The position numbers and the translations under genes were made by a program. A stretch of 64,000 bases of DNA from an uncultured Actinomycetota bacterium (GTDB taxonomy: Bacteria; Actinomycetota; Actinomycetes; Propionibacteriales; Nocardioidaceae), in contig CAWAGJ010000006.1 of assembly GCA_963781475.1 (NCBI GenBank), positions 5,580-69,579 of the forward strand, written 5' to 3'. Position 1 is the first letter of the stretch. Every line of letters begins with the position of its first letter. Of the stretch, positions 10,642-31,649 are shown piece by piece. The notes under the pieces are model-generated. The model was given only the letters and a program-made list of their open reading frames with translations. It did no database searches and was not told the origin of the DNA.

Positions 10642-11415
10642 TCAGCGGCGCCGGCCCAGCAGGTAGGCCAGCACCGCGACCACCAGGGTGATCGCGGCCT
10701 GCGGGCCGTAGGTCTTGACCAGGATCGGGATGACGGCCGCGCCGAGGTCCAGCGCGTCGTCCTCCTTCGCCGCCGCGGGGCGGGGGGCCGCCCGCGGGGG
10801 GTCCGGCACGGCCTGCGGGCCGGACGGTGCCGCCGAGGCGCCCTCGCCCGCCGGGGCCGCCACGGCCGCCGGGGAGGCCGCCACGGTGGGCGGCTCCCCC
10901 TGCGCCTCGTCGCCGGCCGAGGTGCCGGCCACCGACTCCGTCGTCGCCGCGTCGGCCGGAGCCGGGGCGGGTCCGTCGGACAGCGTCTTCTCCAGGCACG
11001 CCACGAACTGGCCCAGCAGCTTGTCCGAGACGTCCTGCATCACCCCGCGCCCGAACTGCGCCGGCTTGCCGGTGACGTTCAGGTCGGTGAGGACCTGCAC
11101 GTCGGTGGCGCCCGCCGCGTCCTGCATGGACAGGGTGACCTTGGCGCCCGCGGTGCCGTTGCCGCGCTTGTCCTTGCCCTTGGCGTCCACGACGAAGCGG
11201 TGGGCCTCGTCGTCCTTCTCCACGAAGGTGCCGCTCCCCGAGTACACCAGGGCGATCGGACCGAGCTTGACCTTCACCGTGCCGGAGAAGTTCTGCTCGT
11301 CGTAGTCGCCGATGGTGGCCCCGGGGAAGCACTCCGCGAGCGCTCCCAGGTCCTGGAAGTGCGCCCAGGTCGCCTCGACCGGGGTGGGGACGGTGAAGGA
11401 GTGGGACAGGTCCAT
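10642..11415 (-). CDS. coxG: CoxG-like SRPBCC protein with Ala/Pro-rich linker and C-terminal TM anchor
   Basis: ATG at 11415 (MDLSHSFTVPTPVEATWAHF...) in ORF 10642..11451. CoxG/SRPBCC fold motifs. Tail ...AVIPILVKTYGPQAAITLVVAVLAYLLGRRR. Confidence 0.85.
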   Translation of the reverse strand: MDLSHSFTVPTPVEATWAHFQDLGALAECFPGATIGDYDEQNFSGTVKVKLGPIALVYSGSGTFVEKDDEAHRFVVDAKGKDKRGNGTAGAKVTLSMQDAAGATDVQVLTDLNVTGKPAQFGRGVMQDVSDKLLGQFVACLEKTLSDGPAPAPADAATTESVAGTSAGDEAQGEPPTVAASPAAVAAPAGEGASAAPSGPQAVPDPPRAAPRPAAAKEDDALDLGAAVIPILVKTYGPQAAITLVVAVLAYLLGRRR

Positions 11416-11422
11416 CGAGCGA

Positions 11423-12277
11423 TCAGCCCCCCGCCGCGGTGAGCACGGCACGCCGCGTCAGCACCGTCGCCAGGTGCTTGCGGTACGACGCCTCGCCGTT
11501 GAGGTCCGAGGGCGGGTTGGTGCCGTCGGCGGCCTTGGCGGCCGCCTCCCGCACCGCGTCCTCGGTGGCCTCGACACCGACCAGGGCCTCCTCCACGGTG
11601 CGCGCCCGCAGCGGGGTCGAGCCCATGTTGGTGAGCCCGACCCGCGCCTCGGCGATCCTGCCGCCCTCGACGCGCACGGCGGCGGCCACGGCCACGATCG
11701 ACCACTGGTGCTCGACGCGGACGAACTTCTCGTAGTGCGCGCCCCACCCGGTGTGCTTGGGGATCCGGACCTCGGTGAGGATCTCGTCCTCGCCGATCGC
11801 GGTCTCGAACAGGTCGACGAAGAAGTCGTCGGCCCCCACGGTGCGCGTCCCGCCCGGTCCGGCGATGACGAACTCCGCGCCGAGCGCGAGCACCGGGGCA
11901 CCCAGGTCGCCGGCCGGGTCGGCGTGGGCCAGGGCCCCGCCGAAGGTGCCGCGGTGGCGGATCTGGGCGTCGGCGAGGTGCTTGACCGCCCCGGTCACCA
12001 GGGCGGCGTGCTCGGCCACGAGCGGGTCCGCGCCGACCGCGGCGTGCGTGGTCATCGCGCCCACGACGATGGCGTCGCCGTCGTCGCGGATGCCGCGCAT
12101 CGACTCGATCTTGCCGAGGTCGATGACCATCTCGGGTGCGTTGAGACGCATCCGCAGGACCGGCAGCAGGCTCTGGCCGCCGCCGAGGATCTTGGCGTCG
12201 TCGCCGTGCTCGGCCAGGGCCGCCAGGGCGTCCTCGACGGTGGTGGGAGCCAGGTACTCGAACGGTGCGGGGATCAT
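11423..12277 (-). CDS. coxM: molybdoenzyme (CODH-family) medium subunit, FAD-binding
   Basis: 284 codons at the 3' end of ORF 11423..13339. MIPAPFEY... and GGGQSLLP FAD motif. The ATG overlaps the coxL stop (ATGA). Confidence 0.92.
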   Translation of the reverse strand: MIPAPFEYLAPTTVEDALAALAEHGDDAKILGGGQSLLPVLRMRLNAPEMVIDLGKIESMRGIRDDGDAIVVGAMTTHAAVGADPLVAEHAALVTGAVKHLADAQIRHRGTFGGALAHADPAGDLGAPVLALGAEFVIAGPGGTRTVGADDFFVDLFETAIGEDEILTEVRIPKHTGWGAHYEKFVRVEHQWSIVAVAAAVRVEGGRIAEARVGLTNMGSTPLRARTVEEALVGVEATEDAVREAAAKAADGTNPPSDLNGEASYRKHLATVLTRRAVLTAAGG

Positions 12278-14759
12278 GCCTGCGTCCCTCCAGTGGTGCG
12301 GTCGGTGGTGCCTTCCATGCCGGTCGAGGGGTCGAAGTGCGGGACGGCGGCACCCTCGGTCGGGTCCGCGCCCCCCGCCTTGATCCCGTTGACGGCCTTC
12401 CAGACGCGCTCGGGCGTGCAGGGCATCTGGATGTCGTCGACCCCGAGGTGGCGCACGGCGTCCACGATCGCGTTCACCACGGCCGGGGTGGAGGCGATGG
12501 TGCCGGCCTCGCCCACGCCCTTGGTGCCCAGCGTGTTGGTGATCGAGGGGGTCGAGGTGTGGTCGATCTCGTAGTTCATCGTGTCGGCCGCCGTCGGCAG
12601 CAGGTAGTCCACGAACGAGCCGGAGACCAGCGTCCCGGAGTCGTCGTAGACCGCCTCCTCCCACAACGCCTGCGCGATGCCCTGGACCAGGCCGCCGTGC
12701 ACCTGGCCGGAGACGATCAGCGGGTTGATCACGGTGCCGATGTCGTCCACGCAGACGTACTTGCGCATCTTCACCGCACCGGTCTCGGTGTCGACCTCCA
12801 TCGCGCACAGGTGCGTGCCGTGGGGGTAGTTGAAGTTCACCGGGTCGTAGGTGGCCTCGGAGTCCAGCGACGGCTCCATGCCCTCGGGGTAGTCGTGCGC
12901 CGAGAACATCGCCGCGGAGATCTCGCCGATGGCCATGCCCTGGTCGGTGCCGCGCACGGTGAACCGGCCGCCGGAGAACTCGATGTCGTCCACCGAGGCC
13001 TCGAGCAGGTGGGCCGCGACCGGCTTGGCCTTCTCGACGACCTTGTCGGCCGCCTTGACCAGCGCCTCGCCGCCGACGACCAGCGAGCGCGAGCCGTAGG
13101 TGTCCAGACCCTTGTGCGCGATCTGGGTGTCGCCGTGCAGCACCTCGACGTCCTCGAAGGCGACCCCGAGCCGGTCGGCGACGATCTGGCTGAACGCCGT
13201 CTCGTGGCCCTGCCCGTGGGCGGAGGCGCCGGTGACGACCTCGACCTTGCCGGTGGCCAGCATCCGCACGCTCGCGTGCTCCCAGCCGCCCGCGCCGTAG
13301 TTGAGCTGGCCGAGCACCCGCGAGGGGGCCAGGCCGCACATCTCGGTGAAGGTCGACACGCCGAGCCCGAGCTGGACCGTGTCGCCCGCGTCACGCCGGC
13401 GCTTCTGCTCGGCGCGCAGCTCGTCGTAGCCGAACATCTCGCGGGCCCGCGCGGTCGCGGCCTCGTAGTTGCCGGTGTCGTACTCGAGACCGGCGACCGT
13501 GGTGAACGGGAACTCCTCGTGCTTGATCCAGTTCTTCTCACGGACCTCGAGGGGGTCCATGTCCAGCTCGGCGGCCAGCTCGCTCATCAGCCGCTCGATC
13601 GCGAACGTGGCCTCGGGGCGCCCGGCGCCGCGGTACGCGTCGGTCCAGGTCTTGTTGGTCAGCACCGTCTGGCAGTTGAACTGGTAGGCCGGGAACTTGT
13701 AGATCGCGTTGAACATGAACGCGCCCAGCACCGGCACGCCGCCGCCGACCAGCGAGACGTACGAGCCGAGGTCGGCGAGCAGGTCGACCTTGAGGCCGGT
13801 GACGTTGCCCTCCTTGTCGGCGGCCAGGGTGAGCTTCTGCCACTGGTCGCGGCCGTGGTGGCCGGCCATCAGGCTCTCCGAGCGGGTCTCGGTGAACTTC
13901 ACCGGCTTGCCCAGCCGGTTGGCGATGGCGAAGGTCAGCCACTCCTCCGGCGTGGTCTGGAGCTTGCCGCCGAAGCCGCCGCCCACGTCGGGGGCGATGA
14001 CCCGGATCTTGGACTCCGACACGCCCGTGGTCGCGGCGAGCGCGAACCGCAGGATGTGGGGGACCTGGGTCGCCGACCACATGGTGATCTGCTCGCCGGT
14101 GGGGTCCACCACGGTCGAGCGCGGCTCCATGAAGGCCGGGATCAGTCGCTGCTGGCGGTACTCGCGCTCGATGACGACGCCGTCGGTGCGGGCCTTCTCG
14201 ATGGCCTCGTCCACGCTGGTGCCGGTGCCGGCGTCGACGGAGTCGAACTGCCAGAACGCCGACTTGTTGGTGCCCAGGTCGGGGTGGGCCAGCACCTCGT
14301 CGGCGGCGGACTTCTTCAGGTCCAGCGCGGCGGGGAGCTCGTCGTACTCGACGTCGACCAGCTCGGCGGCGTCGCGGGCCTCGGTCTGCGTGCGGGCGAC
14401 CACGATCGCCACGATCTCGCCGGCGAAGGTGACCCGGTCCGCGGGGCACGGCACGTGGGTCGGGGTGACCTGGTCGGGGGTGATCGCCCAGGCGTTGATC
14501 AGCACGCCCTGGCTCTCGCCGAGGTCGGCGCCGGTGAACACCGCGACCACGTTCGGCGAGGCCTCGGCCTCGGACTTGTCGATGGAGGTGATGGTGGCGT
14601 GCGCGAAGGGGCTGCGCACCATGGCGAGGTGCAGCATGCCGGGCAGCGTGATGTTGTCGGTCCAGCGGGTGCGACCGGTGATCAGGCGCTGGTCCTCCTT
14701 GCGGAGCCGCTCCTGCCCGATCTCCGGGATGGCCTCGGTGGACCGGTCCTGGGTGGTGG

Positions 14760-14763
<4 letters not shown>
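12274..14763 (-). CDS. coxL: form-II CODH-family large subunit (molybdopterin-binding), substrate unknown
   Basis: ATG at 14763 (MTTTQDRS...) in ORF 12274..15339, 829 aa. The active-site loop reads AYRGAGR (form II), not AYxCSFR (form I). S-L-M gene order also fits form II. Confidence 0.92.
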
Positions 14764-15266
<503 letters not shown>

Positions 15267-15283
15267 GGCCTGCTCGCTCCCTT

Positions 15284-15319
15284 GCGTGGGCTGTGGTGCG
15301 TGGGCTGTCGTGCGTGAGC
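15284..15319. repeat. 14-bp tandem repeat upstream of coxS
   Basis: GCGTGGGCTGTGGT, GCGTGGGCTGTCGT and a partial GCGTGAGC, 18-55 nt upstream of the coxS start. Confidence 0.6.
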
Positions 15320-15332
15320 ACGGAGGTCGCCG

Positions 15333-15353
15333 GACCCACGTGTGACGTGGGTC
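15333..15353. promoter_or_regulatory. perfect palindrome GACCCACGT-GTG-ACGTGGGTC (candidate operator or regulator-gene terminator)
   Basis: 9-bp arms with a 3-nt centre, between the regulator stop (15421) and the coxS start (15266). Confidence 0.35.
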
Positions 15354-15420
15354 TCTCGTGCCGGTGACGCTAGGCCGCCACGGTTGGCCGATGGTTGGAG
15401 CCCCCCGGGCCGGCGGCGCC

Positions 15421-16692
15421 TCAGCGGGTCGCGGCCGCGAGCTTGCCCTTGAGCAGGGGCTTCGCGGCGTGGTGGCGGTCGCCGAGGACCTCCAGGCACT
15501 TCTCGACGACCTCGATGTCGTACGGCGCCAGGTCGGCGTAGCGCAGCACCGCGGCCGGCTCGGGGTCGACCAGCAGCGCCTCGCGCACGGCGACCGCGAC
15601 GTAGTCGGCCAGCTCGGCCAGGGCGGGGCTGTTGGTGCCGGGCAGCAGGTCCCCGCCGTACGCCCGGACGGCGCGGGCGACCTGGCCCGCGCGCAGCAGG
15701 TCCAGCACCCGGTCGACGTCGGTGGTGACCGGCATCGTGAGCCGGTAGGGCCGCGAGGCCAGCTGTCCGCCGAGGGCGGCCCGCAGGTGGGAGACCTCGG
15801 CCTTGAGCGTGGAGAGCGTGACGGCCTGGTCGCCGTAGACGAGGGCGTGCAGCCGGTCCAGCGAGAGCCCCTCGGGGTGCAGCGCGAGCAGCGCCAGGAT
15901 CTCGGTCTGGCGGCGGTTCAGCAGCAGCCGCTGACCGTCGTGGCGCACCTCGGCGGTGCCGAGCAGGCGCATCACCAGGCCCGGCTCGGAGTCCAGCGCG
16001 TCGCCGACCGGGACGCCGTCGGCCTGCCCGATCAGGTCCTCCAGGGCGGTCGGCTGGTAGGCCGAGCGCGGCATCGCGGACTCGATCAGCCGCGCCATCA
16101 CCCGGGCCGTGGCCAGGCCGATCGGGTGGCTGCGGTCCCAGGTCGTCGACAGGTCGATGACGCCGATCTGGCGACCGCTGTGCGGGTCGAAGACGGGCGC
16201 GGCCCAGCACACCCAGTTGTGCACGATCGGGGCGTAGTGCTCGGCCGAGAAGACCATCGACGGCGTGGCCATCCTGGTGGCCAGGTCGAGGGCGTTGGTC
16301 CCGACCGACTGGTCGTCCCACCGGGCGCCGGGGGCGAAGTTCACGCTCTCGGCCTTGCGGCGCATCACCCGACCGCCGTAGGTCCACAGGATCCGGGTCT
16401 GGGCGTCGGTGACGGCCAGCACCAGGTCGCCGTCCTCGGCGGTGCGCCGCAGCTCGGCCTCGACCCCGGCCACCGCCTCCTGGAGCGGGGAGTCCTGCCA
16501 CAGCGACGCGGTCTCGTCCTCGTCGGACATCGGCGCGGCCTCGACCCCGGTCGGCACGGCGGCGACCGAGCGGGTCCAGCTGGAGAGGATCTCGGGCCGC
16601 ACCCGCGACTGCGCGGAGTCGCCGTGCTCGACGAACGAGGTCCACGCCTTGAGCGTCTCGACCTTCCGGGTGTGCAGCTCGTCGGTGACCAT
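15421..16692 (-). CDS. GAF-domain transcriptional regulator with SARP-type wHTH + BTAD-like C-terminus
   Basis: ORF 15421..16692. Central GAF-like region ([14 protein letters not shown]...IGVIDLS). [39 protein letters not shown]...LKAEVSHLR is an OmpR/SARP wHTH. The start shares one nt with the mftF-like stop (TGATG). Confidence 0.85.
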
Positions 16693-18380
16693 CAGCTCCC
16701 CTGGTGCCCTTCCCTCGTCGCCGCGAACATAGCACCGGGCCTGTGACCGTCCTCACGTGCTCGTGGCGGCGTCCCGCCGACCGGACGACCGCTCGACCGG
16801 CCGCGGAGCAGCACCGGCAGCAGCGCCCGCGGCGAGCGGGCGCGGGCCGCGCCGGCCCACACGCCCGCGCCGTAGGCCAGGTCGTCGAGGCGGTGGGCCA
16901 GGACGTACGCCGCCCGGGGCTGGGAGGACCCGACCCGGTGGTGGTCCCACAGGCCCTCCCCCACCGCCGCGACCAGCAGCGCCCGCCGCGCGCGGCGGGA
17001 GCCGGTGGCGGCGAGGACGGCCAGCGGCCAGTGGTGCCGGGTCAGCGACGCGGCGGTCTGGCTCAGCACCGCCCCGACCCCGCGGGTGGCCAGGCCCGCG
17101 GCGTCCCGGCCGGGGCGGTCGCCGGGCAGCCGGCGCGCCAGCACCACGGTCGCGGTCCCCCAGGCCGCCACCACGACGGGCACCGACCAGCGCCGCTGGG
17201 CCAGCAGCGCGACCGCGGTCACCGCCGCCCACGGGGTCAGCACGACCGGGGCGACGGCGTCGCCGTGGCGGTCGGCGAGGTCCGCGGCCGAGCCGCCGTA
17301 GAAGGCCTTGCGGCGCAGCCAGGCCACCGGCCCCGCGCGGTGGTCGTGGCGCACCCGCGCCGCGGGCTCGTACCGCACCCGCCACCCCGCACCGACCAGC
17401 CGCCAGACCAGGTCGACGTCCTCCCCGCTGCGCAGCTCCTCGGCGAACCCGTCCCCCAGGGCCGCCACCCGGGCGACCCAGCAGGCGCTCGGCACGTAGG
17501 AGACCGGGGCCCGCGGGCGCACCTGGGCCGCGCGGGCCCCCAGGTCGAGCGAGGAGCGGTCGGCCTCGTACGCCCCCACCCACCGTGCGAGACGACCCGC
17601 CGAGGGTGCCCCCGCCAGCGCGAGCACCCGGGGCGCGGCGAGCGCGACCAGCGGGTCCTCGAGGTGCCGCACCAGGGTGGCCAGCCAGCCCGGCTCGGGG
17701 ACGACGTCGGAGTCGACGAACGCCACCAGCGGGGTGCCCACGGCGGCCAGACCGGTGTTGCGGGCCGCGGCGGGACCCCGGTTGACGGGGTGCCGCAGCA
17801 GCCGGGCGCCGTGCGCCGCCGCGAGCGCCGCCACCGGGCCGGGGTCGCCCGAGGCGTCGTCGACCACCAGCACCGGCACCCCGGCCGGCAGCGCGTCCAG
17901 CAGCCGGGCCAGCTCCGTCGGACGGTCGTGCACGGGCACCACGACCGTCACGCCGGCGACGCCGGCGACGCCGGCGTCGGAGTGGTCGGTGGCGTCGCCC
18001 GCTGCCTCGGGCCACCACGGCTCCGCCACGCCGGCGTCGAGCAGGGTGCGGGCCAGCCGCCGGGTCGCGGGGTCCTCGGCAAGGGCGGGCAGCCCGACCA
18101 CGAAGTCGGCGGCGGGCGGGGACAGCCGCAGGACGCGGTCGGCGCCGTGGCCCCGCAGCGTCCGGGTCCCGTCGGCCGCGCGGGCCCCCAGCCGGGCGCC
18201 GGGCAGCAGCCGCAGGCCGGTGCCGGCGGGCACGGGCGGCGCGGGCCCGGGCGAGCCGGGCAGGCCGGGCCGGGCGGGCCGGGCGGGCCGGGCGCGGGAG
18301 TGGTCATCGCGGCCATCGTGGCCGGTCGGGGCCCCGGCGGACCACCGGACCCCGGGCGCGCCGTCCGGGGGACCCGGCAC
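16692..18380 (-). CDS. mftF: family-2 glycosyltransferase, mycofactocin-system MftF-like (start uncertain)
   Basis: ORF 16692..18380. GT2 core VTVVVPVHDRP..LARLLDAL....VLVVDDAS and FVDSDV. The N-terminal LRL.P.A..F...L....ATRRLARTLLDAGVAEP region and the C-terminal membrane segment match my recollection of MftF architecture. The Pro-rich first ~40 codons may not be translated. Confidence 0.6.
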   Translation of the reverse strand: MPGPPDGAPGVRWSAGAPTGHDGRDDHSRARPARPARPGLPGSPGPAPPVPAGTGLRLLPGARLGARAADGTRTLRGHGADRVLRLSPPAADFVVGLPALAEDPATRRLARTLLDAGVAEPWWPEAAGDATDHSDAGVAGVAGVTVVVPVHDRPTELARLLDALPAGVPVLVVDDASGDPGPVAALAAAHGARLLRHPVNRGPAAARNTGLAAVGTPLVAFVDSDVVPEPGWLATLVRHLEDPLVALAAPRVLALAGAPSAGRLARWVGAYEADRSSLDLGARAAQVRPRAPVSYVPSACWVARVAALGDGFAEELRSGEDVDLVWRLVGAGWRVRYEPAARVRHDHRAGPVAWLRRKAFYGGSAADLADRHGDAVAPVVLTPWAAVTAVALLAQRRWSVPVVVAAWGTATVVLARRLPGDRPGRDAAGLATRGVGAVLSQTAASLTRHHWPLAVLAATGSRRARRALLVAAVGEGLWDHHRVGSSQPRAAYVLAHRLDDLAYGAGVWAGAARARSPRALLPVLLRGRSSGRPVGGTPPRAREDGHRPGAMFAATREGHQGS

Positions 18381-18507
18381 ACCTGACCGGACGGGCAGGT
18401 CCGGCCCTCACCCGCGGAGCAGTCTTCGGATCCTCGTCTGGTGCCTGCGGTGGGTCGCTCCTAGCGTCCGCCGTGAGCCCATCGCCACACCCCCAGGAGG
18501 ATCCGAC

Positions 18508-19800
18508 ATGCAGGTCGACGAGCTGCTCAAGCCGTTCCCGATCAAGGAGTTCCACCCGTTCCCCCGAGCCCTGATGGGCCCGGGGGCGCACGAGATGATC
18601 GGTCCGGAGGCCCTGAAGATGGGCTTCCGCAAGACGCTGGTGATGACGTCCGGCCTGCGCGGCACCGACATCGTCCACAAGATCGTGGAGTCGATGAAGT
18701 ACCACGGCCTCGAGGTGGTGGTCTACGACAAGGTCGAGTCCAACCCCAAGGACTACAACGTCATGGACTCGGTGACGATGTACCAGGAGAACGCCTGCGA
18801 CTCGTTCGTCTCCATCGGCGGCGGCTCCTCGCACGACGCCTGCAAGGGCGCCCGCGTCTCGGTGGCCCACGACGGCCGGAACGTGAACGAGTTCGAGGGC
18901 TTCAACATGTCCGAGAACCCGAAGAACCCGCCGCACATCGCCGTCTCCACGACGGCCGGCACCGGCTCGGAGACGTCCTGGGCCTACGTCATCACCGACA
19001 CCACGACCGACCCCGACAACCCCCACAAGTACGTCGCCTTCGACGACGCCTCGGTGACCTCCCTGGCCATCGACGACCCGGTCCTCTACTTCGACTGCCC
19101 CGTCGACTACACCGCCCAGTGCGGCTTCGACGTGCTGGCCCACGCCAGCGAGCCGTACGTCTCGCGGATCAACTTCGAGCCCTCGCTCGGCAACGCGCTG
19201 CACGCGATCAAGCTGACCAACCAGAGCCTGCGCCAGGCCGTGTGGAACGGCCAGGACCTCGCCGGCCGCGAGGGCATGATGTACGCCCAGTACATCGCCG
19301 CCCAGGCGTTCAACTCCGGCGGGCTCGGGATCATCCACTCGATCTCGCACGCCATCAGCGCCTTCTACGACACCCACCACGGCCTGAACAACGCCATCGC
19401 GCTCCCCCGGGTGTGGGCCTTCAACATGCCCACGCAGTACAAGCGCTTCGCCGACATCGCGCGGGCGATGGACATCGACACCCACGGGATGACCGACGTC
19501 CAGGCTGCCGACGCCGCGCTCGGGGCGGCGATCCGGCTGCTGCGCGACGTGGGCATCACCGAGAAGTTCACCGACGTCAACGCCGACACCTACTCCAAGA
19601 ACCGTCTCGGTCAGGGGCCCACGAAGTACTACGAGAACGCCGGCACCATCAGCGGTGACGGGGCCGACGTCGACCGGATCACCCACCACGTCCTCGGCGA
19701 CGCCTGCACCCCGGGCAACGCCAAGGAGTGCACCTTCGAGACCGTGCGGCCCGTGGTCGACCACTGCATGAACGGCGACCTGGACGACCTGCTCGGCTGA
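18508..19800 (+). CDS. mno: NDMA-dependent (mycofactocin-linked) methanol/alcohol dehydrogenase, type III ADH
   Basis: ATG at 18508, 7 nt after AGGAGG. PIKEFHPFPRALMG, YDKVESNPKDYNV, GGGSSHDA.KGARV, STTAGTGSETSWAYVITD, SGGLGIIHSISHA and HHGLNNAIALPRVW closely track Mno/ThcE-type enzymes. Confidence 0.92.
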   Translation: MQVDELLKPFPIKEFHPFPRALMGPGAHEMIGPEALKMGFRKTLVMTSGLRGTDIVHKIVESMKYHGLEVVVYDKVESNPKDYNVMDSVTMYQENACDSFVSIGGGSSHDACKGARVSVAHDGRNVNEFEGFNMSENPKNPPHIAVSTTAGTGSETSWAYVITDTTTDPDNPHKYVAFDDASVTSLAIDDPVLYFDCPVDYTAQCGFDVLAHASEPYVSRINFEPSLGNALHAIKLTNQSLRQAVWNGQDLAGREGMMYAQYIAAQAFNSGGLGIIHSISHAISAFYDTHHGLNNAIALPRVWAFNMPTQYKRFADIARAMDIDTHGMTDVQAADAALGAAIRLLRDVGITEKFTDVNADTYSKNRLGQGPTKYYENAGTISGDGADVDRITHHVLGDACTPGNAKECTFETVRPVVDHCMNGDLDDLLG

Positions 19801-19831
19801 ACCACCCCTCCCCCCGGGGCGGTCGCCCGCG

Positions 19832-19870
19832 GGCCGGTCGTACCTCCGCACGTGCGGGGTACGACCGGCC
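19832..19870 (+). terminator. intercistronic stem-loop after mno (attenuator or mRNA-stabilising hairpin)
   Basis: GGCCGGTCGTACC-TCCGCACGTGCGGG-GTACGACCGGCC. 13-bp outer stem plus the inner palindrome CCGCACGTGCGG. 32 nt after the mno stop and 79 nt before the moxR-like start. Confidence 0.55.
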
Positions 19871-19948
19871 TCGCGGGCTCGACCCGGTCACCACCCCGCC
19901 ACCGCGCTGGATCGACCACCCGCCACCCACCACCCACCGGAGCTGACG

Positions 19949-21148
19949 TTGACCCTCGCCGCCCCCGAACCCGACTTCGCCGACGTCGCCGACACCAAGG
20001 CCCGCTTCGCCGAGCACGGCTACCTCGTCGACGACCGGCTGGCCACCACGGTGTTCCTGCAGACCCGGCTCGAGAAGCCGGTGCTGCTCGAGGGTCCTGC
20101 CGGGGTCGGCAAGACGCAGCTCGCGCTCAGCCTGGCCCAGGCCACCGGCCGCAGGCTGCTGCGGCTGCAGTGCTACGAGGGCCAGGACGAGACCAAGGCG
20201 CTCTACGAGTGGGACTACGGCAAGCAGCTGCTCTACACCCAGATCCTGCGGGAGAAGATCGGCCAGGTCGTCGCCGACACCAGCACCCTCGCCGAGGCCG
20301 TCGACAAGATCGCGGCCCAGGACTCGGTGTTCTTCTCCGAGCGGTTCCTGGCCCCCCGCCCCCTGCTCGAGGCGATCGACTCCGACCAGCCCTGCGTGCT
20401 GCTCATCGACGAGGTCGACCGGGCCGACGAGGCGCTCGAGGCGGTGCTGCTCGAGCTGCTGGCCGAGTTCCAGATCTCGATCCCGGAGATCGGCACCGTG
20501 GTGGCCAAGCACAAGCCGTACGTGGTGCTGACCTCGAACAACACCCGCGACCTCTCCGCGGCGCTCAAGCGGCGCTGCCTGCACCTGTTCCTGGACTACC
20601 CCGGCGCCCAGCGCGAGCTCGAGATCATCCGCTCCAAGGACACCGGGCTCTCGGAGTCGCTGGCCGTCCGCCTGGTGGGCATCGTCCGGTCCCTGCGCGA
20701 GCTGGAGCTGCGCAAGGCGCCGAGCATCTCCGAGACCATCGACTGGGCCCGCACGCTCGCCGTCCTCGGCGTCGAGGAGCTGACCGCCGAGGTGCTCTCC
20801 TCCACCCTCAACGTCGTGGTCAAGTACGAGCGCGACCTCACCAAGGCGCTGGACGCGATCCCCCGGATGGTCGACCCGAACGCGACCGTGCCCGACTCGC
20901 TGACCGGGCACGGCCACGGCCACGGGCACGGCCACGACGAGGAGCCCGTCACACCGGCCCCCCGGCGTACGCCCCCGGCCGACGACGGCGACGTGGACGG
21001 CAGGGCCAGGCGGGCCGCGAAGGACCAGCCCGGCCGTCACGACCTCGGCTACAACGGGCAGCAGACCAAGCCCACCGGCGGCGCGTCGAAGAAGGTCTCG
21101 AGCAGCCAGGGGTCCCGCTCGTTCCCGACCCGCCGCCGCCCGGTCTGA
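19949..21148 (+). CDS. MoxR/CoxD-like AAA+ ATPase with His-Gly repeat and disordered C-terminal tail
   Basis: ORF 19949..21148 with TTG start. Walker A GPAGVGKT, Walker B LLIDEVDRA, and the CoxD-like RLQCYEGQDE..ALYEWDY. The tail contains GHGHGHGHGH. Confidence 0.88.
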   Translation: MTLAAPEPDFADVADTKARFAEHGYLVDDRLATTVFLQTRLEKPVLLEGPAGVGKTQLALSLAQATGRRLLRLQCYEGQDETKALYEWDYGKQLLYTQILREKIGQVVADTSTLAEAVDKIAAQDSVFFSERFLAPRPLLEAIDSDQPCVLLIDEVDRADEALEAVLLELLAEFQISIPEIGTVVAKHKPYVVLTSNNTRDLSAALKRRCLHLFLDYPGAQRELEIIRSKDTGLSESLAVRLVGIVRSLRELELRKAPSISETIDWARTLAVLGVEELTAEVLSSTLNVVVKYERDLTKALDAIPRMVDPNATVPDSLTGHGHGHGHGHDEEPVTPAPRRTPPADDGDVDGRARRAAKDQPGRHDLGYNGQQTKPTGGASKKVSSSQGSRSFPTRRRPV

Positions 21149-21160
21149 GGGGGCCGGGTC

Positions 21161-22711
21161 GTGGAGGGCGCCCTGCACCGGTTCGTCCGCCTGCTGCGCC
21201 TGCACGGCGTCCGGGTCAGCACCGCCGAGGTGATCGACGCCATGCACGCCGTCGCCCAGCCCAGCATCCTGGAGGACCGGGGCGTGCTGCACGCCGCGCT
21301 CGCGGTGAGCCTGGTCAAGGACCGCCGCGACCAGGAGGTCTTCGACGACGTCTTCGCCAAGTTCTTCGGCCTGCGGGCGGTCGTCGAGGACGAGACCGGG
21401 CACGGCCACGGCCACGCGCACGACGACCTCACCGACGACGGGGACCTGCACGACTTCACGCTCTCCGAGGAGCCCGGCGACGTCCCCGAGGACGGGCACT
21501 CGCACGGCAAGCCCGACGACATCAAGGAGTTCTTCAAGCCCGAGGACATGGCCCAGCAGTTCAACCTGCACCAGGAGGCCAACAAGATCGACGTCGCGGC
21601 GCTCACCGACGAGATCGTGCTGTCCAACGACACCACCGACGAGGCCGGGGAGATGGCCCGGGTGCAGCTCTCCACGAGCCGGATGCACAACCCCGGCAAC
21701 CCCGGCGACCTCGTCTCGGCGCCCGGGCTGCGCCTGGACGTCGAGCTGTCGGTGGCCGAGGAGATCGCGCTGCTGTCGTGGATCGACGAGCGGGTCAACG
21801 AGATCGCCGAGGAGGACACGACCGACGACGAGAAGGGCGCCAGCCTGGCCGCGCTCCGCGAGGCGCTGGCCCCGTGGATGGAGAAGCTGCCCGAGACCCT
21901 GCGCGACCACCTCGAGCGGCTGATGTCGCTGGACCGCGACCTGGAGGGCCGCGAGATCGAGGCCGCGCAGGCCGAGACCGTCGACGAGCGCGAGCGCGCC
22001 GACCTCGAGGAGGCGCTGCGCCGGCTGCTGCGCAGCCTCCACGGAGCACCCCGGCCGCGACGCCGGGCCGCCGCGCGCGGGGTGGTCGACGGGCGGCGCA
22101 CGATGCGCTCGAACATGAAGTACGACGGCGTCCCCTTCCGCCCGGTCACCGTGGCCAAGGTCGAGGACCGGCCCCGCCTGCTCGTGCTCGCCGACGTCTC
22201 GCTGTCGGTGCGCTCGACGGCCCGGTTCACCCTGCACCTGGTCCACAGCCTGCAGTCGGTGGCCTCGTCCGTGCGCAGCTTCGCCTTCGTCCAGGACCTG
22301 GTCGAGATCAGCGACCTGTTCGCCGAGCACCGCATCGAGGACGCGCTGTCGCTGGTGATGGCCGGGCTGCCCGCCGGGGGCGTGCTCGACGTGGACGCCG
22401 ACTCCCACTACGGCTCGGCGTTCGAGACGTTCCTCGAGCAGTTCGGCTCGGTCGTCACCCGCCGGACCACCCTGCTGGTCCTGGGCGACGGCCGCGGGAA
22501 CGGCAACGACCCCGGCCTGCGCGCCTTCGAGGAGCTGACCCGTCGCGCCCGGTCCACGATCTGGCTGACCCCCGAGCCCCGCTACAGCTGGGGCCTGGGC
22601 GGGTGCGACCTGCCGGCGTACGCCGAGCTCTGCGACCGGGTCCAGGTCGTGCGCAACCTGTCCGGGCTGGAGCGGGCCTCGACCTCCCTGCGGGTGACGG
22701 GGGCACCGTGA
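21161..22711 (+). CDS. CoxE-like VWA-domain protein with acidic His-rich insertion
   Basis: ORF 21161..22711. CoxE-type N-terminus (HRFVRLLRLHGVRVSTAEVIDA). Insertion with ETGHGHGHAHDD and EDGHSHGKPDD. C-terminal VWA with MIDAS DVSLSV. Confidence 0.88.
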   Translation: MEGALHRFVRLLRLHGVRVSTAEVIDAMHAVAQPSILEDRGVLHAALAVSLVKDRRDQEVFDDVFAKFFGLRAVVEDETGHGHGHAHDDLTDDGDLHDFTLSEEPGDVPEDGHSHGKPDDIKEFFKPEDMAQQFNLHQEANKIDVAALTDEIVLSNDTTDEAGEMARVQLSTSRMHNPGNPGDLVSAPGLRLDVELSVAEEIALLSWIDERVNEIAEEDTTDDEKGASLAALREALAPWMEKLPETLRDHLERLMSLDRDLEGREIEAAQAETVDERERADLEEALRRLLRSLHGAPRPRRRAAARGVVDGRRTMRSNMKYDGVPFRPVTVAKVEDRPRLLVLADVSLSVRSTARFTLHLVHSLQSVASSVRSFAFVQDLVEISDLFAEHRIEDALSLVMAGLPAGGVLDVDADSHYGSAFETFLEQFGSVVTRRTTLLVLGDGRGNGNDPGLRAFEELTRRARSTIWLTPEPRYSWGLGGCDLPAYAELCDRVQVVRNLSGLERASTSLRVTGAP

Positions 22712-23664
22712 CGCTCGCACCCGGTCCGGTGCCGCCGATCGACCCCCTCGCCCCCGGCCCCCCGGGCGAGCAGGGCGTCTACCGCGACGACGTGGTGGAG
22801 GTGCGGGCGGTCGGTCCGCAGCGTCCGCGCCGGGCGCTGCGCACCGTGCGTACCGCGCACTTCGACCTCGGGGTCCGCGGCGACCTGGTCCACCTCGACC
22901 ACGTGCTGCTGCCCGGGGAGGTCGACGACGACCTGGCCGGCCTGCTGGCCGCCGAGCTCTTCGGGCCGGGCTGGCTGCGCGGCGCGGACCTCTTCGAGCG
23001 GCTCTTCACCGGGGTGGTGCTCTCGGGGGCCGCGGACCCGCTGACCGCCTGGGAGGGGTTCTACCGCGCGACGATGACGCGGGTCGAGCAGGACGTGGCC
23101 CGCGCCAGGGCGCCGGGAGCCGGGACGGGCGGCGGCGGGTCGGGGCACGGCACGATCGAGGAGTACGCCCCCGTCTACGCCCGCGCCACCGCGCTGGTCG
23201 TCGGGCACGACGTGCTGGAGCTCGGCTCGTGCTTCGGGTTCCTCTCCCTGCGCCTGGCCCGCGCCGGGTGGCGGGTGACCGCCTCCGACGTCTCGGCCGG
23301 CACCGTGGCGCTGCTGGCCAGGGTGGCCGGGCGCCTGGACGTGCCGCTGCGGACCGTGGTCGCGGACGCCGCCCACTACCCCGGCCCGCCCCGCAGCGCG
23401 GACACCGTCCTGGCCCTGCACCTGCTGGAGCACCTCGAGCCCGCGCACGGCGACCGGGTCGTCACCGAGGCGCTGCGCCTGGCGCGCCACCGCGTGGTCG
23501 TCGCGGTCCCCCTCGAGGACGAGGCCGACGAGACCTGGGGGCACGTGCGCACCGTCGGCGTCGCCGACCTGGTCGCCTGGGGCGAGGACGCGGTGCGGGC
23601 CGGCCGCGCCCGGGCGTACACCGTCGACGAGCACCACGGCGGGTGGCTGGTCCTCGACCGCTGA
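22708..23664 (+). CDS. class I SAM-dependent methyltransferase (candidate MftM-type by context only)
   Basis: GTG at 22708 overlaps the VWA stop (GTGA). Frame of ORF 19852..23664. Motif I VLELGSCFGFLS, acidic ASDVS, and post-I/II motifs. Confidence 0.8.
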   Translation: MTLAPGPVPPIDPLAPGPPGEQGVYRDDVVEVRAVGPQRPRRALRTVRTAHFDLGVRGDLVHLDHVLLPGEVDDDLAGLLAAELFGPGWLRGADLFERLFTGVVLSGAADPLTAWEGFYRATMTRVEQDVARARAPGAGTGGGGSGHGTIEEYAPVYARATALVVGHDVLELGSCFGFLSLRLARAGWRVTASDVSAGTVALLARVAGRLDVPLRTVVADAAHYPGPPRSADTVLALHLLEHLEPAHGDRVVTEALRLARHRVVVAVPLEDEADETWGHVRTVGVADLVAWGEDAVRAGRARAYTVDEHHGGWLVLDR

Positions 23665-23701
23665 GGGGGCTCTGTCGGGTCCTCCACAGGGGTACGTCGC
23701 G

Positions 23702-23756
23702 CGTTGTCACCGCTCGCAGGTCCGTGACCGTGATGAGGATGCGTGCGGTGACAACG
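23702..23756 (+). terminator. nested inverted repeat after the methyltransferase gene
   Basis: Perfect 12-bp arms CGTTGTCACCGC (23702-23713) and GCGGTGACAACG (23745-23756). These are flanked by the outer arms CCACAGGG (23684-) and CCCTGTGG (23767-). Confidence 0.45.
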
Positions 23757-23816
23757 TGCCCGGGGTCCCTGTGGACGACGCCGGACACGCCGTCCCCGGA
23801 CCCGGCAGGCTCCGGG

Positions 23817-24868
23817 ATGCACCGCTGGGACCCCCGCTGTCCGCCCCGGCGCGACGTCGTCCACCCGGTCGCGGTCGACCCCACGGGCCGGACGGGCCCG
23901 ACGAGGGGCAGGCGGCCGGGCCGGGCTGGCGCCGGACGTCCCGGGGCCTGTTCGTCCCGAGCGCCGTCGGCGACGGCCTCCCCGAGCAGCGCGTCCTGAG
24001 CAGGCCGCACGGTTGCCGGCCGGGGGCGCGGTGACGGGCTGGGCGGCCTGCCGCCTGTGGGGCGGCACCTTCTTCGACGGGCTCGCACCCGATGGGCGCA
24101 CCCGCCTGCCGGTGCCCCTCGACCTCGGCCCGACCGGCTTCGCTCGCGCCGGGCCGGGCGTCCTGGTCGTCCGGTACCCGGCTCGGGCCCGGATCAGGTC
24201 GTCGGGGACCCGGTCCCGCGGACGCTCCGCGCGACCGCGCGGTCGTCGACGCGATGCGGCTGGCCCCCGACCTGGTCGAGGCGGTGGTCGCGGCCGACAT
24301 GGCGATGGCCGCTCGATCAGCAGCCCCGTGCGCCTCGCCCGCGGAGCTGCGGGCCGGCTGCGGCGCTGCCCGGGGTCCGCAGGCCAGGGCGCGATGCGGC
24401 GTCCTGGCCTGCGAGCACAGCCGCTCCCCGGCGGAGACGCGGGTCCGGCTGCTCGCCGTCGCGGGGGCGGGCTGCCCCGGACATCCGTCGTGGTCAACTG
24501 CGTCGGTGCGGGACCGGCCGGGTCGTCTGCTCGGGGTCGCCGACCTGCTCGACCTCGAGGCGGGCCTCGTGGTCGAGTACGACGGCGCGGAGCACCGAGC
24601 GAGGGCCTGCGTCAGGCGCGAGACGCCGTCAAGGAGCGAGGACCTCCGCGACGTGGGGCTGGAGGTCACCCGCGTCACCGGCCGGGACATGCGGGACCCG
24701 ACCTGGTGGTGGACCGCCTGGTCCGGGCCCGCGACCGGGCACGTCGCCGTCGGGGACCGCCCCGTCCTGGGTCGTGGTGTCCGCCCGACCCTGGGTCGAG
24801 AGCGAGATCGCCGAGCGGGAGGCGTGGTCGCAGTGGCACGACCGCTCGATCCGGAGAACGTGTCATGA
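23817..24868 (+). pseudogene. decayed DUF559/Vsr-like endonuclease-domain gene (multiple frameshifts)
   Basis: Family-typical blocks occur in different frames. VDPTGRTGPTRG is in frame 0 and GPGWRRTSRGLFVP...EQRVL in frame 2. QAARLPAGGAVTGWAACRLWGG...VPLDLGP is in frame 1. LVEAVVAADMAM...SPAETRVRLL...GRLLGVADLLDLEAGLVVEYDGAEHR is in frame 2, and PDLVVDRLVRARDRA in frame 1. Confidence 0.6.
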
Positions 24869-24945: not shown

Positions 24946-25644
24946 CTAGATCACGCCGAGCTTGCTGGCCTCGTAGACCGCCTCGGCGCGGCGGGAGACG
25001 CCCAGCTTGCGCAGGATGTTGCCGACGTGGAACTTCGCGGTCGTCTCGGAGATGAACAGCGACCTGCCGATCTCGCCGTTGGACTGGCCCCGGGCCAGCA
25101 GGGCCATCACCTCGGTCTCGCGGGCGGTCAGCGAGGTGGTGGCCTCCTGGGGCGCGGGGGCGTTCAGGCCGCGCACCATGGCCGCGGCCGAGCGGGGGTC
25201 GAAGGCGCTCTCGCCGCGGGCCACGTCGCGGATGGCGCGGATCAGCCCGGTGGTGTCGACGTCCTTGACCACGTACCCCTTGGCCCCGAGCCGGATCGCG
25301 GTCAGCACCAGCTGCTCGTCGAGGAAGGTGGTCAGCACCAGCACCCGCACCTCCGGGTGCTCGGCGACCAGCTGCGCGCAGAGCTCGAGCCCCTCGGCGT
25401 CGGAGGACGTGGAGAGCTTGAGGTCCAGGAGCACGATCTGGGGGCGGGCGTGGCGCACGACGACCAGCGCCTCGGGCGCGGTGGAGGCCTCGGCCACCAC
25501 GTCGAGGTCGGGCTCGCGGCCGAGGATGGAGCGCAGGCCCTGCCGGACGATCGCGTGGTCGTCGACGAGCATGATCCGCACGGGGTCCGTCGGGGTCTCC
25601 CCGGCGGCGTGGGGTGTGCGGGGTCGGGTCGAGGTGGGGCTCAT
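24946..25644 (-). CDS. two-component response regulator, NarL/LuxR family
   Basis: ORF 24946..25644. Receiver (IMLVDDH...VLLDLKL...) plus LuxR HTH (LTARETEVMALLARGQSNGEIG..LFISETTAKFHVGNILRKLG). The ATG overlaps the kinase stop (ATGA). Confidence 0.93.
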   Translation of the reverse strand: MSPTSTRPRTPHAAGETPTDPVRIMLVDDHAIVRQGLRSILGREPDLDVVAEASTAPEALVVVRHARPQIVLLDLKLSTSSDAEGLELCAQLVAEHPEVRVLVLTTFLDEQLVLTAIRLGAKGYVVKDVDTTGLIRAIRDVARGESAFDPRSAAAMVRGLNAPAPQEATTSLTARETEVMALLARGQSNGEIGRSLFISETTAKFHVGNILRKLGVSRRAEAVYEASKLGVI

Positions 25645-27128
25645 GCGGTGCTCCCTGGGTGGTCGTGCACAGGCGGTACGGCGGGGCGCGCCGTGGCGGG
25701 CGCGGTGGTGTCGAGCAGGCCCGAGATGGTGCCGGCGGTGGCCGGCACGTCGATCGGCAGCGGGACGCGCAGCTCCACCCGGACGCCGCCGAGGCGGGCG
25801 CGGCGGAAGGCGATCCGGCCACCGAGCTCGAGCACGCGGCTCTCGATGTTGGCCAGGCCCCGGTGCCGGCCGCTGGTGTCGGTGCGCTGCACGCGCAGCA
25901 CCCGGCTCAGCGCCGTCGGGTCGCCGCTGCCGTCGTCGGCCACGTGCACCCTCAGCTCGTCGGGGGCGTAGCGCAGCCGCACGACCGCGCGCGTGGCGCG
26001 GGCGTGGGTGGCGGTGTTGAAGAGGGCCTCGGCCACCGCGCGGGCGATCTCGTGGTCGGCGTCGACCGGCAGGCCCTGGACGTCGCCCTCGACCCGGACC
26101 TGGACCTTGAGGTGGCCGCGGTGGTGCTCGGCGACGTCGGCCAGCAGCTCGGGCAGGGTGGAGACGGTGTCGCGGGAGGGCTGGCTGAGGGCGTAGATGG
26201 CCCGGCGCAGCTGCTCGACGGCCTGGGCCGCGAGCTGCTTGGCGGTGGTCACGGAGAGCGTCGCGGCGCCCGCGCCGGACCCCAGCGCGGCCAGCTCGCC
26301 GCGGGCGACCTCGAGCTGCATGCCGGCCGACAGGACGTACTGGGTGACGCTGTCGTGCAGCTCGCGGGCGATCCGGTGCCGCTCGGCGTCGACGATCTCG
26401 CGCTGGTGGGCCAGCAGGAGCCGCTGCTCGACGCGGCGCAGCTCGTCGGTGCGCAGCGCGAGGTCACGGGCCTGGGCCTGCGCCTCGTCGTAGACGCGCT
26501 GGGCACGGCGGTGCAGCGCGACACCGGCCTGGTACTGCTCGGAGGTGTGCAGGGAGACGGCCGCCTGGTTGGCCAGGATCCGCAGCACCGACAGGTCGCT
26601 GGGCTCGGGGTCGACGCTCAGGCCGTGCCGGGCGGCGAGGCTGCCGATCGGGCGGCCCTCCAGCGACATCGGGACCCGGACCCAGCCGGTGTCGTCGGTG
26701 TGGCGGGCGTGCCCGGCACGCACGGCGGACAGCTCGCGGCGTACGGGCGCGGGAAGCAGCCGCTCGTCGTCGACGGGCACCCCGTCGCGGTGCAGGGCCA
26801 GGAAGCGGGGTCGCGCGCCGGGCAGCTGGCCGTCGGCCAGGGCGAGGACGACCCACTCGGCGGAGAGGTGGGAGCCGACCGCGCGGACCACCTCCTCGAG
26901 CAGGCCACGGGGGCCCTGGACGGTGCGCACCAGCGCCCGGGAGATCGAGTCCATCGCGCGCACGGCCTGCTGCAGCCGCTCGTCGGAGCGGACGTAGGCG
27001 CGGTAGTAGGAGCCCTTGCCGGAGCGGACCCCGGTCAGCGTGGCCAGGTCCGGGGGTGGTGGGTCCGGGCGTGGTGGGTCCGGGCGTGGCGGGTCCGACC
27101 AGGGCGGGCCGACCCGCTGCTCGCTCAC
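25641..27128 (-). CDS. GAF-domain sensor histidine kinase (HisKA_3/HATPase_c)
   Basis: 3' part of ORF 25641..28139. GTG at 27128 overlaps the Fe-ADH stop (GTGA). GAF region, H-box ARELHDSVTQ, and ATPase motifs EALFNT...ADDGSG. The N-terminus carries PDPPRPDPPRPDPPPPD. Confidence 0.85.
   Translation of the reverse strand: MSEQRVGPPWSDPPRPDPPRPDPPPPDLATLTGVRSGKGSYYRAYVRSDERLQQAVRAMDSISRALVRTVQGPRGLLEEVVRAVGSHLSAEWVVLALADGQLPGARPRFLALHRDGVPVDDERLLPAPVRRELSAVRAGHARHTDDTGWVRVPMSLEGRPIGSLAARHGLSVDPEPSDLSVLRILANQAAVSLHTSEQYQAGVALHRRAQRVYDEAQAQARDLALRTDELRRVEQRLLLAHQREIVDAERHRIARELHDSVTQYVLSAGMQLEVARGELAALGSGAGAATLSVTTAKQLAAQAVEQLRRAIYALSQPSRDTVSTLPELLADVAEHHRGHLKVQVRVEGDVQGLPVDADHEIARAVAEALFNTATHARATRAVVRLRYAPDELRVHVADDGSGDPTALSRVLRVQRTDTSGRHRGLANIESRVLELGGRIAFRRARLGGVRVELRVPLPIDVPATAGTISGLLDTTAPATARPAVPPVHDHPGSTA
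27057..27101. repeat. 15-bp tandem repeat (about 3 units) inside the kinase 5' end
   Basis: GGTGGGTCCGGGCGT x2, then the diverged GGCGGGTCCGACCAG. Encodes the PDPPR repeats on the minus strand. Confidence 0.8.
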
Positions 27129-28369
27129 AGCGCCGCGCGGAACAGCGCTTCGACGTCGTCGGCCGACGCCGCCCGGGGGTTGGTGGACAGGCAGGCGTCG
27201 CCCAGCGTGGTCAGCGCCAGGCCGGGGACGTCCTCCTCGGTGACCCCGAGCGAGCGCAGGCCCCGGGGGACGCCGATGTCGTCGGCGAGCTGGCGTACGT
27301 GCTGGGCCAGGAGCTCGGCGGCCTCCTCGCCCGGGATGCCGAAGACCGGCAGCCCGGCCTGGGCGGCCAGCGCCACGAACCGGTCGGGCGTGGCGCGGGC
27401 GTTGTAGCGGATCACGTGCGGCAGGAGCACCCCGTTGACCACGCCGTGCGGCGCGTCCAGCAGCCCGCCGACCTGGTGGCTCATCGCGTGGGTCGCCCCG
27501 AGGATGGCGTTGGTGAAGGCCAGGCCGGCCTCCAGGCTGGCCTGCGCCATCTTCGCCCGGGCCGGCTCGGACCGGGGGTGCGTCATGGTCGAGCGCAGGT
27601 GCCGGCAGACCAGCCCCACGGCGTTCAGGGCGTGCACGTCGGCGAGCGGGTTGTGGGCCAGCGAGACGTACGCCTCGATCCCGTGGGTCAGCGCGTCGAG
27701 CCCGGTCGCGGCGTTGAGGTCCTCGGGCATCGTCACCAGCAGGCGGGGGTCGGTGATCGAGATGTCGGGCACCAGGGCGCGGCCCATGATGGTGATCTTC
27801 ACCGACCGCGCGGTGTCGGTGACGATGCAGAACTGGGAGACGTCGGCGCCGGTGCCCGAGGTGCTCGGGATCATCACCAGGGGCGGGATCGGCCTCGTGG
27901 CCCGGTCGACGCCGGCGTAGTCGAGGATGTCGCCGCCGTTGCCCTGCAGCACCGCGACCCCCTTCGCGGCGTCGATGACCGAGCCGCCGCCGATCCCGAC
28001 CACCACGTCGGCGCCGGACTCGACGTAGCGGGCGAACGCGGCGCGCACCTCGTGGTCCTTGGGGTTGGGCGTCACCGCGTGCCAGAGCACCGGGTCCAGG
28101 CCGGCGTCGCGGAGGTGGCGCAGCAGCTCGTCGGCCCACCCGGCCTCGATGATGCCGGGGTCGGTGACCACGAACGGGCGCCGGGCGCCGAGCCTGGCCG
28201 CGCTGAACCCGGCCTCGGCCAGCGACCCGTGACCGACCACCAGCTCGGGGGCGTGGAACTTCACCACGCCGGGCCGTCCCGACGGGATCGCGTCGAGGGC
28301 GGGAGGTGCGTGCGGCAGGTGCGGCTCGGGCCCGGTGCCGGACGAGCCGTGGGCGGCGGTGACGGTCAT
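27125..28369 (-). CDS. iron-containing (type III) alcohol dehydrogenase
   Basis: ATG at 28369, preceded by GGGGAG, within ORF 27125..28399. GGGSVIDAAKG, PSTSGTGADVS, and the His cluster LTHGIEAY...THAMSH. Confidence 0.9.
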   Translation of the reverse strand: MTVTAAHGSSGTGPEPHLPHAPPALDAIPSGRPGVVKFHAPELVVGHGSLAEAGFSAARLGARRPFVVTDPGIIEAGWADELLRHLRDAGLDPVLWHAVTPNPKDHEVRAAFARYVESGADVVVGIGGGSVIDAAKGVAVLQGNGGDILDYAGVDRATRPIPPLVMIPSTSGTGADVSQFCIVTDTARSVKITIMGRALVPDISITDPRLLVTMPEDLNAATGLDALTHGIEAYVSLAHNPLADVHALNAVGLVCRHLRSTMTHPRSEPARAKMAQASLEAGLAFTNAILGATHAMSHQVGGLLDAPHGVVNGVLLPHVIRYNARATPDRFVALAAQAGLPVFGIPGEEAAELLAQHVRQLADDIGVPRGLRSLGVTEEDVPGLALTTLGDACLSTNPRAASADDVEALFRAAL

Positions 28370-31621: not shown

Positions 31622-31649
31622 AATCTAGGTCGGTGCTGTTGGCGGCTGG

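Follow-up and report, generated by a model that had tools for sequence, protein, structure and literature searches.

The locus examined here raises the question of how a gene for a mycofactocin glycosyltransferase, mftF, came to lie beside the methanol/alcohol dehydrogenase gene mno, away from the genes that make the cofactor itself. The locus is situated on a stretch of 64,000 nucleotides from an uncultured member of the Nocardioidaceae (GenBank assembly GCA_963781475.1, contig CAWAGJ010000006.1, positions 5,580 to 69,579). This whole stretch is called the window below, its contig C6 and its genome G000. A sequence-only reading of the window had described six genes (a GAF/SARP regulator, mftF, mno, a MoxR-type ATPase, a CoxE-like VWA protein and a methyltransferase). 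It had concluded that the genes for decoration of the cofactor were relocated to the dehydrogenase that depends on it. Analysis of the whole genome and of related genomes led to another answer. The locus probably serves as the module for alcohol oxidation in a mycofactocin (MFT) system that is complete but divided between separate sites, and the pathway would be a chimera of two cluster lineages that arose by reciprocal gene loss.

The mno locus and the core cluster

Since the window has a GC content of about 75%, genes were called by third-position GC, without reliance on the length of open reading frames. Protein families were assigned using the curated (equivalog) cut-offs of the NCBIfam models, together with Pfam. 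All six genes were recovered at or near the positions first assigned to them, with reading frames backed by third-position GC (Table 1), and their identities held. MftF, which had been recognised by its glycosyltransferase 2 (GT2) architecture, scored 403.4 bits against TIGR03965 (cut-off 280) with model positions 8-465 of 467 covered, and matched Glycos_transf_2 in Pfam. Mno, formerly assigned to the NDMA-dependent methanol dehydrogenases, reached 661 bits against TIGR04266 (cut-off 625). The methyltransferase had been taken for MftM from its context only. It scored 308.8 bits against NF041255 (cut-off 200; model positions 7-289 of 289), which places it in this family and not in an unrelated one; it sits in the mno block, and mftC is present in the genome. 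The two proteins encoded between mno and mftM matched AAA_5 and VWA_CoxE (PF05762, E 5.7e-31), in agreement with their description as ATPase and VWA protein. Translational coupling of mftF and the regulator gene was likewise confirmed, the ATG start of the latter lying on the TGA stop of mftF with an overlap of 1 nt (TGATG).

Neither an mftA-like gene nor a radical-SAM mftC had been seen in the window, and the searches bore this out. No tblastn match to mftB, mftC, mftD or mftE was obtained in the window (E <= 1e-20), and none to any of the genes mftA to mftE on the whole of C6 (E < 1e-6). The core genes were found on contig C3. There, mftR lies beside mftA-mftB-mftC-mftD-mftE, followed by the gene of a mycofactocin-coupled SDR. 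Every member exceeded its curated cut-off (given after the slash): MftR 252.6/224.9 bits, MftA 50.6/25, MftB 112.6/33, MftC 640.8/265, MftD 663.1/470.85 and MftE 311.6/172. The C-terminus of MftA reads IDGMCGVY, with CGVY kept. This cluster contains no mftF; the SDR gene is followed, after a gap of 12 bp, by a convergent FGGY kinase gene. In a profile search of the genome contigs, the window copy on C6 was the sole MftF above the cut-off. MftF thus co-occurs with mftB and mftC in this genome, off the mftABCDE neighbourhood.

Such a distribution could also be produced by assembly or binning, if C3 and C6 came from different organisms or if an mftF beside mftE had been lost in an assembly gap. 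The genome is a draft of 16 contigs with a completeness of 91%, which would allow for an error of this kind. However, contamination is 0.75%, and the GC content is uniform (73-76%) across the contigs. The mftE-SDR-FGGY junction (locus L011) is contiguous and its short gap offers no room for mftF. An identical arrangement in two loci is found in G001, the nearest relative, where 156 kb of a single 3.96-Mb scaffold separate mftF/mno from the core cluster; binning therefore cannot have produced the split. The split was also present in four further genomes. An artefact is regarded as extremely unlikely.

Gene order around mno and the two cluster lineages

In species-representative genomes 563 mno loci were found. 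The best 80 of these 563, mostly from Nocardioides, were taken with 10-kb flanks and scanned with the window proteins; the window Mno was 88-97% identical to these 80 homologues. Upstream of mno, 72 loci were classifiable, and the downstream block was scored in 71. The block mno-moxR-vwa-mftM was near-invariant, with MoxR in 70 of the 71 loci and VWA and MftM in all 71. On the upstream side four layouts were distinguished. A supercluster mftF-E-C-B(-A) divergent from mno (type II) was present in 38 of the 72 loci, and mftB-C-D-E-F running co-directionally into mno (type I) in 14. The layout of the window, with mftF divergent from mno and the core genes absent (type III), was seen in 9 loci, and 11 loci had no mft gene within 10 kb of mno. 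Co-occurrence of the six-gene arrangement across genomes is therefore twofold: the downstream block is fixed, and the orphan mftF upstream recurs but is uncommon.

The whole mft cluster adjoins mno in 52 of the 72 classifiable loci, and mftF is found beside mno because the entire cluster normally sits there. Relocation of decoration genes to the dehydrogenase was consequently not borne out, mftM being a constant part of the mno block. Loci L035, L043 and L079 carry CoxS-Reg-mftF-mftE-mftC-mftB up to mno, which is the layout of the window with the core genes in place; CoxL was also matched in L035 and L079. In type II loci, mftD and an SDR gene were observed on the far side of mftM on the opposite strand (e.g. 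L035, 19788-21286), so that the biosynthetic genes bracket the mno block. Another layout variant was noticed in L067 (Nocardioides sp. Root140), in which Reg-CoxS-CoxL directly adjoins mno with no mftF between.

From the same family, 301 genomes were also sampled evenly and separately; MftC was present in 44 of them, MftF in 41 and Mno in 24. The orphan-mftF layout was restricted to 2 of the 24 Mno genomes (G000 and G122), and two complete mft clusters were found in three genomes of the sample.

Two lineages of mft clusters were distinguished by phylogeny. By sequence identity, MftB, MftC, MftD and MftE of the window genome are nearer to type I clusters, and MftF is nearer to type II. In the MftC tree, the cores of the split genomes, the type I clusters, both clusters of G138 and the core of N. 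kribbensis (G004) formed one side of a branch with 100/100 support (lineage 1). Forcing the split-genome cores into the local type II clade was rejected by the approximately unbiased (AU) test (log-likelihood difference 60.7, p-AU 0.0019). A constraint that merely placed these cores outside the rest of lineage 1 had given p 0.156; on an unrooted tree it was mis-posed, and it was replaced. In the MftF tree, the type I copies, those of G138 and the core-linked copy of N. kribbensis formed a 100/100 clade, and all orphan copies were placed in the type II clade. Joining the orphan copies to lineage 1 was rejected (log-likelihood difference 152.7, p-AU 3.7e-5).

Gene order followed the same division. 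The usual order of unlinked lineage-1 clusters is mftR beside A-B-C-D-E-SDR-F (L103, L105, L106); those of the window genome and G001 end at the SDR. In N. kribbensis each of the two lineages is represented by an mftF gene, one at the end of the core operon (L103, G004:C15) and the other at mno (L019/L100, G004:C14). Because the core MftC and the MftF of the window genome differ in lineage and N. kribbensis keeps both copies, the window mftF is best understood as the remnant of an mno-adjacent cluster and not as a relocated gene. Orphan copies are polyphyletic inside the type II part of the MftF tree, where well-supported branches require at least three changes of state; the orphan-mftF outcome therefore arose more than once. 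In G138, which belongs to the genus of the window organism, two complete lineage-1 clusters mftA-B-C-D-E-SDR-F (L105 and L106) were observed and no mno; their MftF proteins are mutually closest (99/96 support) and may stem from a recent duplication.

If this genome were considered alone, a simple translocation would be the most economical account, since each mft gene occurs only once and relics are absent. A single ancestral cluster would have adjoined mno, mftABCDE would have moved off with mftF left in place, and no second lineage would be involved. The trees contradict this account, as they unite the core MftC with the type I lineage, and descent from local type II was rejected; so do the opposite affinities of MftB/C/D/E and MftF and the presence of both mftF lineages in N. 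kribbensis. Furthermore, the core order A-B-C-D-E-SDR is that of lineage 1 and not that of type II, which is A-B-C-E...F with mftD and the SDR gene beyond mftM. Translocation is considered improbable.

Reciprocal loss would proceed from the usual state of the family, a type II supercluster with mftA-B-C-E-F divergent from mno. The lineage would also have held a second, unlinked cluster of the other lineage, with mftR beside ABCDE-SDR-F. Redundant genes would then have been lost reciprocally, the core genes on the mno side and mftF in the unlinked cluster, which would leave the chimera. From the relatives we infer the order and direction of these losses and the identity of the resident and the incoming lineage.

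In the resulting system, the aglycone premycofactocin would be made by mftR-ABCDE on C3. The window MftF would add a chain of beta-1,4-glucose, and MftM would methylate that chain. Mno, as a nicotinoprotein alcohol dehydrogenase, would take electrons from methanol or ethanol and transfer them to the completed cofactor. Maturation or activation of Mno is probably the task of the MoxR/VWA pair. The GAF-SARP regulator probably induces expression from the divergent region between mftF and mno, as well as that of the molybdenum aldehyde oxidoreductase, whose genes lie downstream of the regulator gene. These predicted activities are based on family membership and on published mycobacterial work.

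Several observations weigh against a complete split system formed by reciprocal loss. The losses are deduced from relatives only, since no relic of the lost genes is present in the genome; tblastn of the whole genome with its own and with type II (L035) proteins revealed no leftover second mftB, mftC, mftD or mftE and no lineage-1 mftF. A clean deletion of mftF could not be mapped, because the flanks of lineage-1 clusters differ between genomes. The groups compared in the AU tests were set after the first trees had been seen. With the genome 91% complete, there is a residual chance that a second mftF lies on unassembled DNA. MftG (TIGR03970), the known mycofactocinol reoxidase, was not found above its cut-off in the genome; the best MftG-like gene codes for a GMC oxidoreductase (G000:C1:25466-27061) with 228.5 + 80.4 bits versus 387.45. 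About 25% of genomes with mftC are devoid of MftG (PMC11778925).

The 5' end of mftF adds a further difficulty. The conserved body of the gene comprises positions 16692-18233 in an open frame, and the start is uncertain, being either GTG 18233, immediately 5' of the conserved VPAGTGLRLLPG, or GTG 18380, which is not conserved. In the closest relatives (L014, L037, L060) MftF begins at an ATG whose counterpart here is at position 18307. Since the distance from there to GTG 18233, 74 nt, is not divisible by three, this ATG does not share the frame of the conserved body. A GC-rich tract at this end (approximately 18230-18300) differs in length among the relatives, and either a true indel or a misassembly of this tract may lie behind the shift. 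If no alternative start works, mftF could be poorly expressed.

The displaced start also lends support to the view that the mno-linked MftF no longer acts on mycofactocin, either because it is decaying or because it serves another acceptor, and that unglycosylated premycofactocin is used. The long branch of the mno-linked copy in N. kribbensis (0.75-0.8) points in the same direction, as constraint on it may be relaxed where another mftF copy is present. The terminal branch of the window copy, however, is short (0.089). Its reading frame runs uninterrupted for 562 codons, its third-position GC is about 0.96-1.0, and the protein exceeds the equivalog cut-off by 123 bits across the full model. 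MftM, which needs a glucan substrate, is intact and translationally coupled in the block, and mftF is retained at this place in nine further species. Loss of MftF function is regarded as quite unlikely.

For a working MftF in a split system, a tentative extension can be considered, to which we give low confidence. The mno-linked MftF might be matched in its function to the module of Mno and MftM, for instance by setting the glycan length or pattern preferred by Mno or MftM. Such matching would explain why, where two mft clusters came together in a genome, the same resolution, a lineage-1 core with the mno-side glycosyltransferase, was reached at least twice independently (in the clade of the window and in N. 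alkalitolerans). It would also place decoration under alcohol-responsive GAF-SARP control, apart from the control of core synthesis by MftR.

Control region, downstream block and neighbouring genes

Coordinates of the locus and its surroundings are compiled in Table 1.

Table 1. Features of the mno locus and adjacent regions (positions in the window)
Feature	Position	Strand	Evidence
coxS-coxL-coxM-coxG molybdenum hydroxylase operon	10642-15266	-	Pfam domains
GAF-like sensor + SARP regulator, 423 aa	15421-16692	-	DhaR-like N-terminus, predicted fold
mftF, GT2 mycofactocin glycosyltransferase	16692-18380	-	TIGR03965, Pfam Glycos_transf_2
mftF/mno divergent control region	18381-18507	none	elements kept across six genomes
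Palindrome ACCTG-N10-CAGGT (candidate operator)	18381-18400		six-genome conservation
Conserved block	18422-18443		six-genome conservation
-10-like element TAGCGT	18462-18467		six-genome conservation
Shine-Dalgarno sequence of mno, AGGAGG, strong			six-genome conservation
mno/mdo, NDMA-dependent (mycofactocin-linked) methanol/alcohol dehydrogenase, Fe-ADH family, 430 aa	18508-19800	+	TIGR04266
Strong RNA hairpin in the mno-moxR spacer	19821-19884	+	folding z-score
MoxR/CoxD-type AAA+ ATPase, His-Gly-rich C-terminal tail	19949-21148	+	AAA_5
CoxE-like VWA protein, ATPase partner	21161-22711	+	PF05762 (VWA_CoxE)
mftM, mycofactocin oligosaccharide 2-O-methyltransferase	22708-23664	+	NF041255
Fe-ADH, GAF histidine kinase, LuxR response regulator	24946-28369	-	best match of Fe-ADH: ErcA
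Second MoxR/VWA pair (coxD, coxE) and xdhC	28466-31624	-	

The N-terminal part of the regulator is DhaR-like by sequence (NCBIfam NF008485, E 2.5e-18; PDB 4lrx). Pfam gave 20.4 bits for Trans_reg_C, below its cut-off of 26.2, and BTAD was unreported even at E <= 5. An AlphaFold model was calculated from 15 orthologues (pLDDT 78.8) and compared using Foldseek. The N-terminal half matched the GAF-like sensor of E. coli DhaR (DhaR(N), 4lrx, E 1.3e-10), and the C-terminal half matched AfsR (8k60/8hvr, E ~4e-6) and EmbR (2ff4, E 1.8e-5) over about 220 columns. The predicted fold thus supports a DhaR-like GAF sensor joined to a SARP output (winged helix and BTAD), and the GAF/SARP label of the sequence-only reading can be retained. 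Regulator orthologues follow mftF in L012, L014, L035, L037, L043, L048 and L060.

The control region was aligned for six genomes with the layout of the window. Four elements upstream of mno are kept across these six genomes and may serve as sites of control by the adjacent regulator. A scan of positions 15200-24000 for sigma-70 consensus promoters and terminators yielded no promoter and one terminator at chance level; at 75% GC such a scan is uninformative. Because it found nothing, the -10-like element is put forward as a putative promoter part only.

The spacer between mno and moxR is 148 nt long. Folding of positions 19801-19948 gave a minimum free energy of -78.3 kcal/mol, compared with a mean of -62.7 for shuffled sequences (z-score -4.2), and the hairpin may act as a 3' stabiliser or a partial terminator. 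The best NCBIfam match of the ATPase was MadB (NF047784, 370 bits, under the cut-off of 475) and that of the VWA protein MadC (NF047783, 283 bits, under the cut-off of 600). The CoxD protein of the window also matched MadB, with 276 bits. A literature search for the names MadA/B/C returned unrelated uses only. Histidine-glycine repeats were noticed at positions 20890-21520, with GHGHGHGHGHD in the tail of the ATPase and GHGHGHAHDD in the VWA protein; these repeats could bind metal. The stop codon of vwa and the GTG start of mftM overlap by 4 nt (GTGA).

The regulator gene is followed downstream by the coxS-L-M-G molybdenum hydroxylase operon, the Pfam domains of which were confirmed. CoxL was most similar to the alpha subunit of glyceraldehyde dehydrogenase (670 bits, under the cut-off of 790) and is not closest to true CO dehydrogenase. 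The operon product is likely the aldehyde-oxidising partner of the mno locus, and synteny of the cox operon with Reg-mftF was found in L012, L014, L035, L037, L048 and L060. Beyond mftM, genes for an ErcA-like Fe-ADH, a GAF histidine kinase and a LuxR response regulator are followed by xdhC-coxE-coxD. The best match of the Fe-ADH was ErcA (457 bits, under the cut-off of 550), which resembles an ADH and has a regulatory role in the ethanol cascade of Pseudomonas. Stop and start codons overlap in this gene set, which may encode an alcohol-sensing cascade beside mno. The coxD and coxE genes form a second MoxR/VWA pair. Since CoxD and the mno-linked ATPase are 46% identical, the window harbours two paralogous chaperone pairs, the clients of which are presumably different. 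Together with its flanks, the locus looks like an island for the oxidation of alcohols and aldehydes.

Comparison with known systems

In Mycobacterium smegmatis and A. methanolica, mftM lies in a cluster with mdo (= mno), apart from the core genes (PMC9679996, Ellerhorst et al. 2022). In the same study, mftM was present in 99% of the genomes with mdo, and mftC in all of them. The mftM part of the present finding is therefore already known. The activities of MftF and MftM have also been published (PMC9679996; MftF as summarised in PMC11778925). The glycosyltransferase gene was introduced as a neighbour in a conserved gene neighbourhood that always co-occurs with the radical-SAM gene (Haft 2011, PMC3023750). 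In a limited literature search, no paper on an orphan mftF at mno or on two mft lineages was found. The orphan mftF and its chimeric two-lineage origin appear to be undescribed. Both are matters of how genes are organised; the biochemistry is not new, all components being known families.

By this finding, mycofactocin biosynthesis is modular, in that the genes for the aglycone and those for glycan tailoring can differ in cluster lineage and in locus. In genome mining, calls based on the neighbourhood of mftC would score such genomes as devoid of mftF. The question whether glycan decoration is tuned to Mno was left open when the linkage of mftM and mdo was published. Genomes with an orphan mftF, N. 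kribbensis with its two mftF genes and the genomes with two complete clusters offer natural experiments on this tuning.

Compared with the mdo locus of M. smegmatis and A. methanolica, the window likewise has mno/mdo clustered with mftM, away from the core genes. In M. smegmatis, however, mftF is inside the mftABCDEF cluster (PMC9679996), whereas here it is located at mno and absent from the core cluster. With the canonical mftRABCDEF(G) cluster (M. tuberculosis Rv0691c-Rv0696) the genome shares MftR and MftA to MftF, all above their cut-offs, and the CGVY end of MftA; it differs in the unlinking of the glycosyltransferase from the radical-SAM gene and in MftG, which was not detected above its cut-off. 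The type II supercluster of N. psychrotolerans (L035) has the same CoxL-CoxS-Reg-mftF flank, the same mno-moxR-vwa-mftM flank and an MftF of the same clade. The window differs from it in the lack of mftA/B/C/E between mftF and mno and of the distal mftD-SDR pair. The MoxR/VWA pair, finally, resembles the CoxD/CoxE pairs of molybdenum hydroxylases, both by the similarity of its ATPase to the CoxD of the window and by the VWA_CoxE domain of the partner. In contrast to those pairs, it is linked to a nicotinoprotein of the Fe-ADH family instead of a molybdenum enzyme, and it carries additional His-Gly-rich segments.

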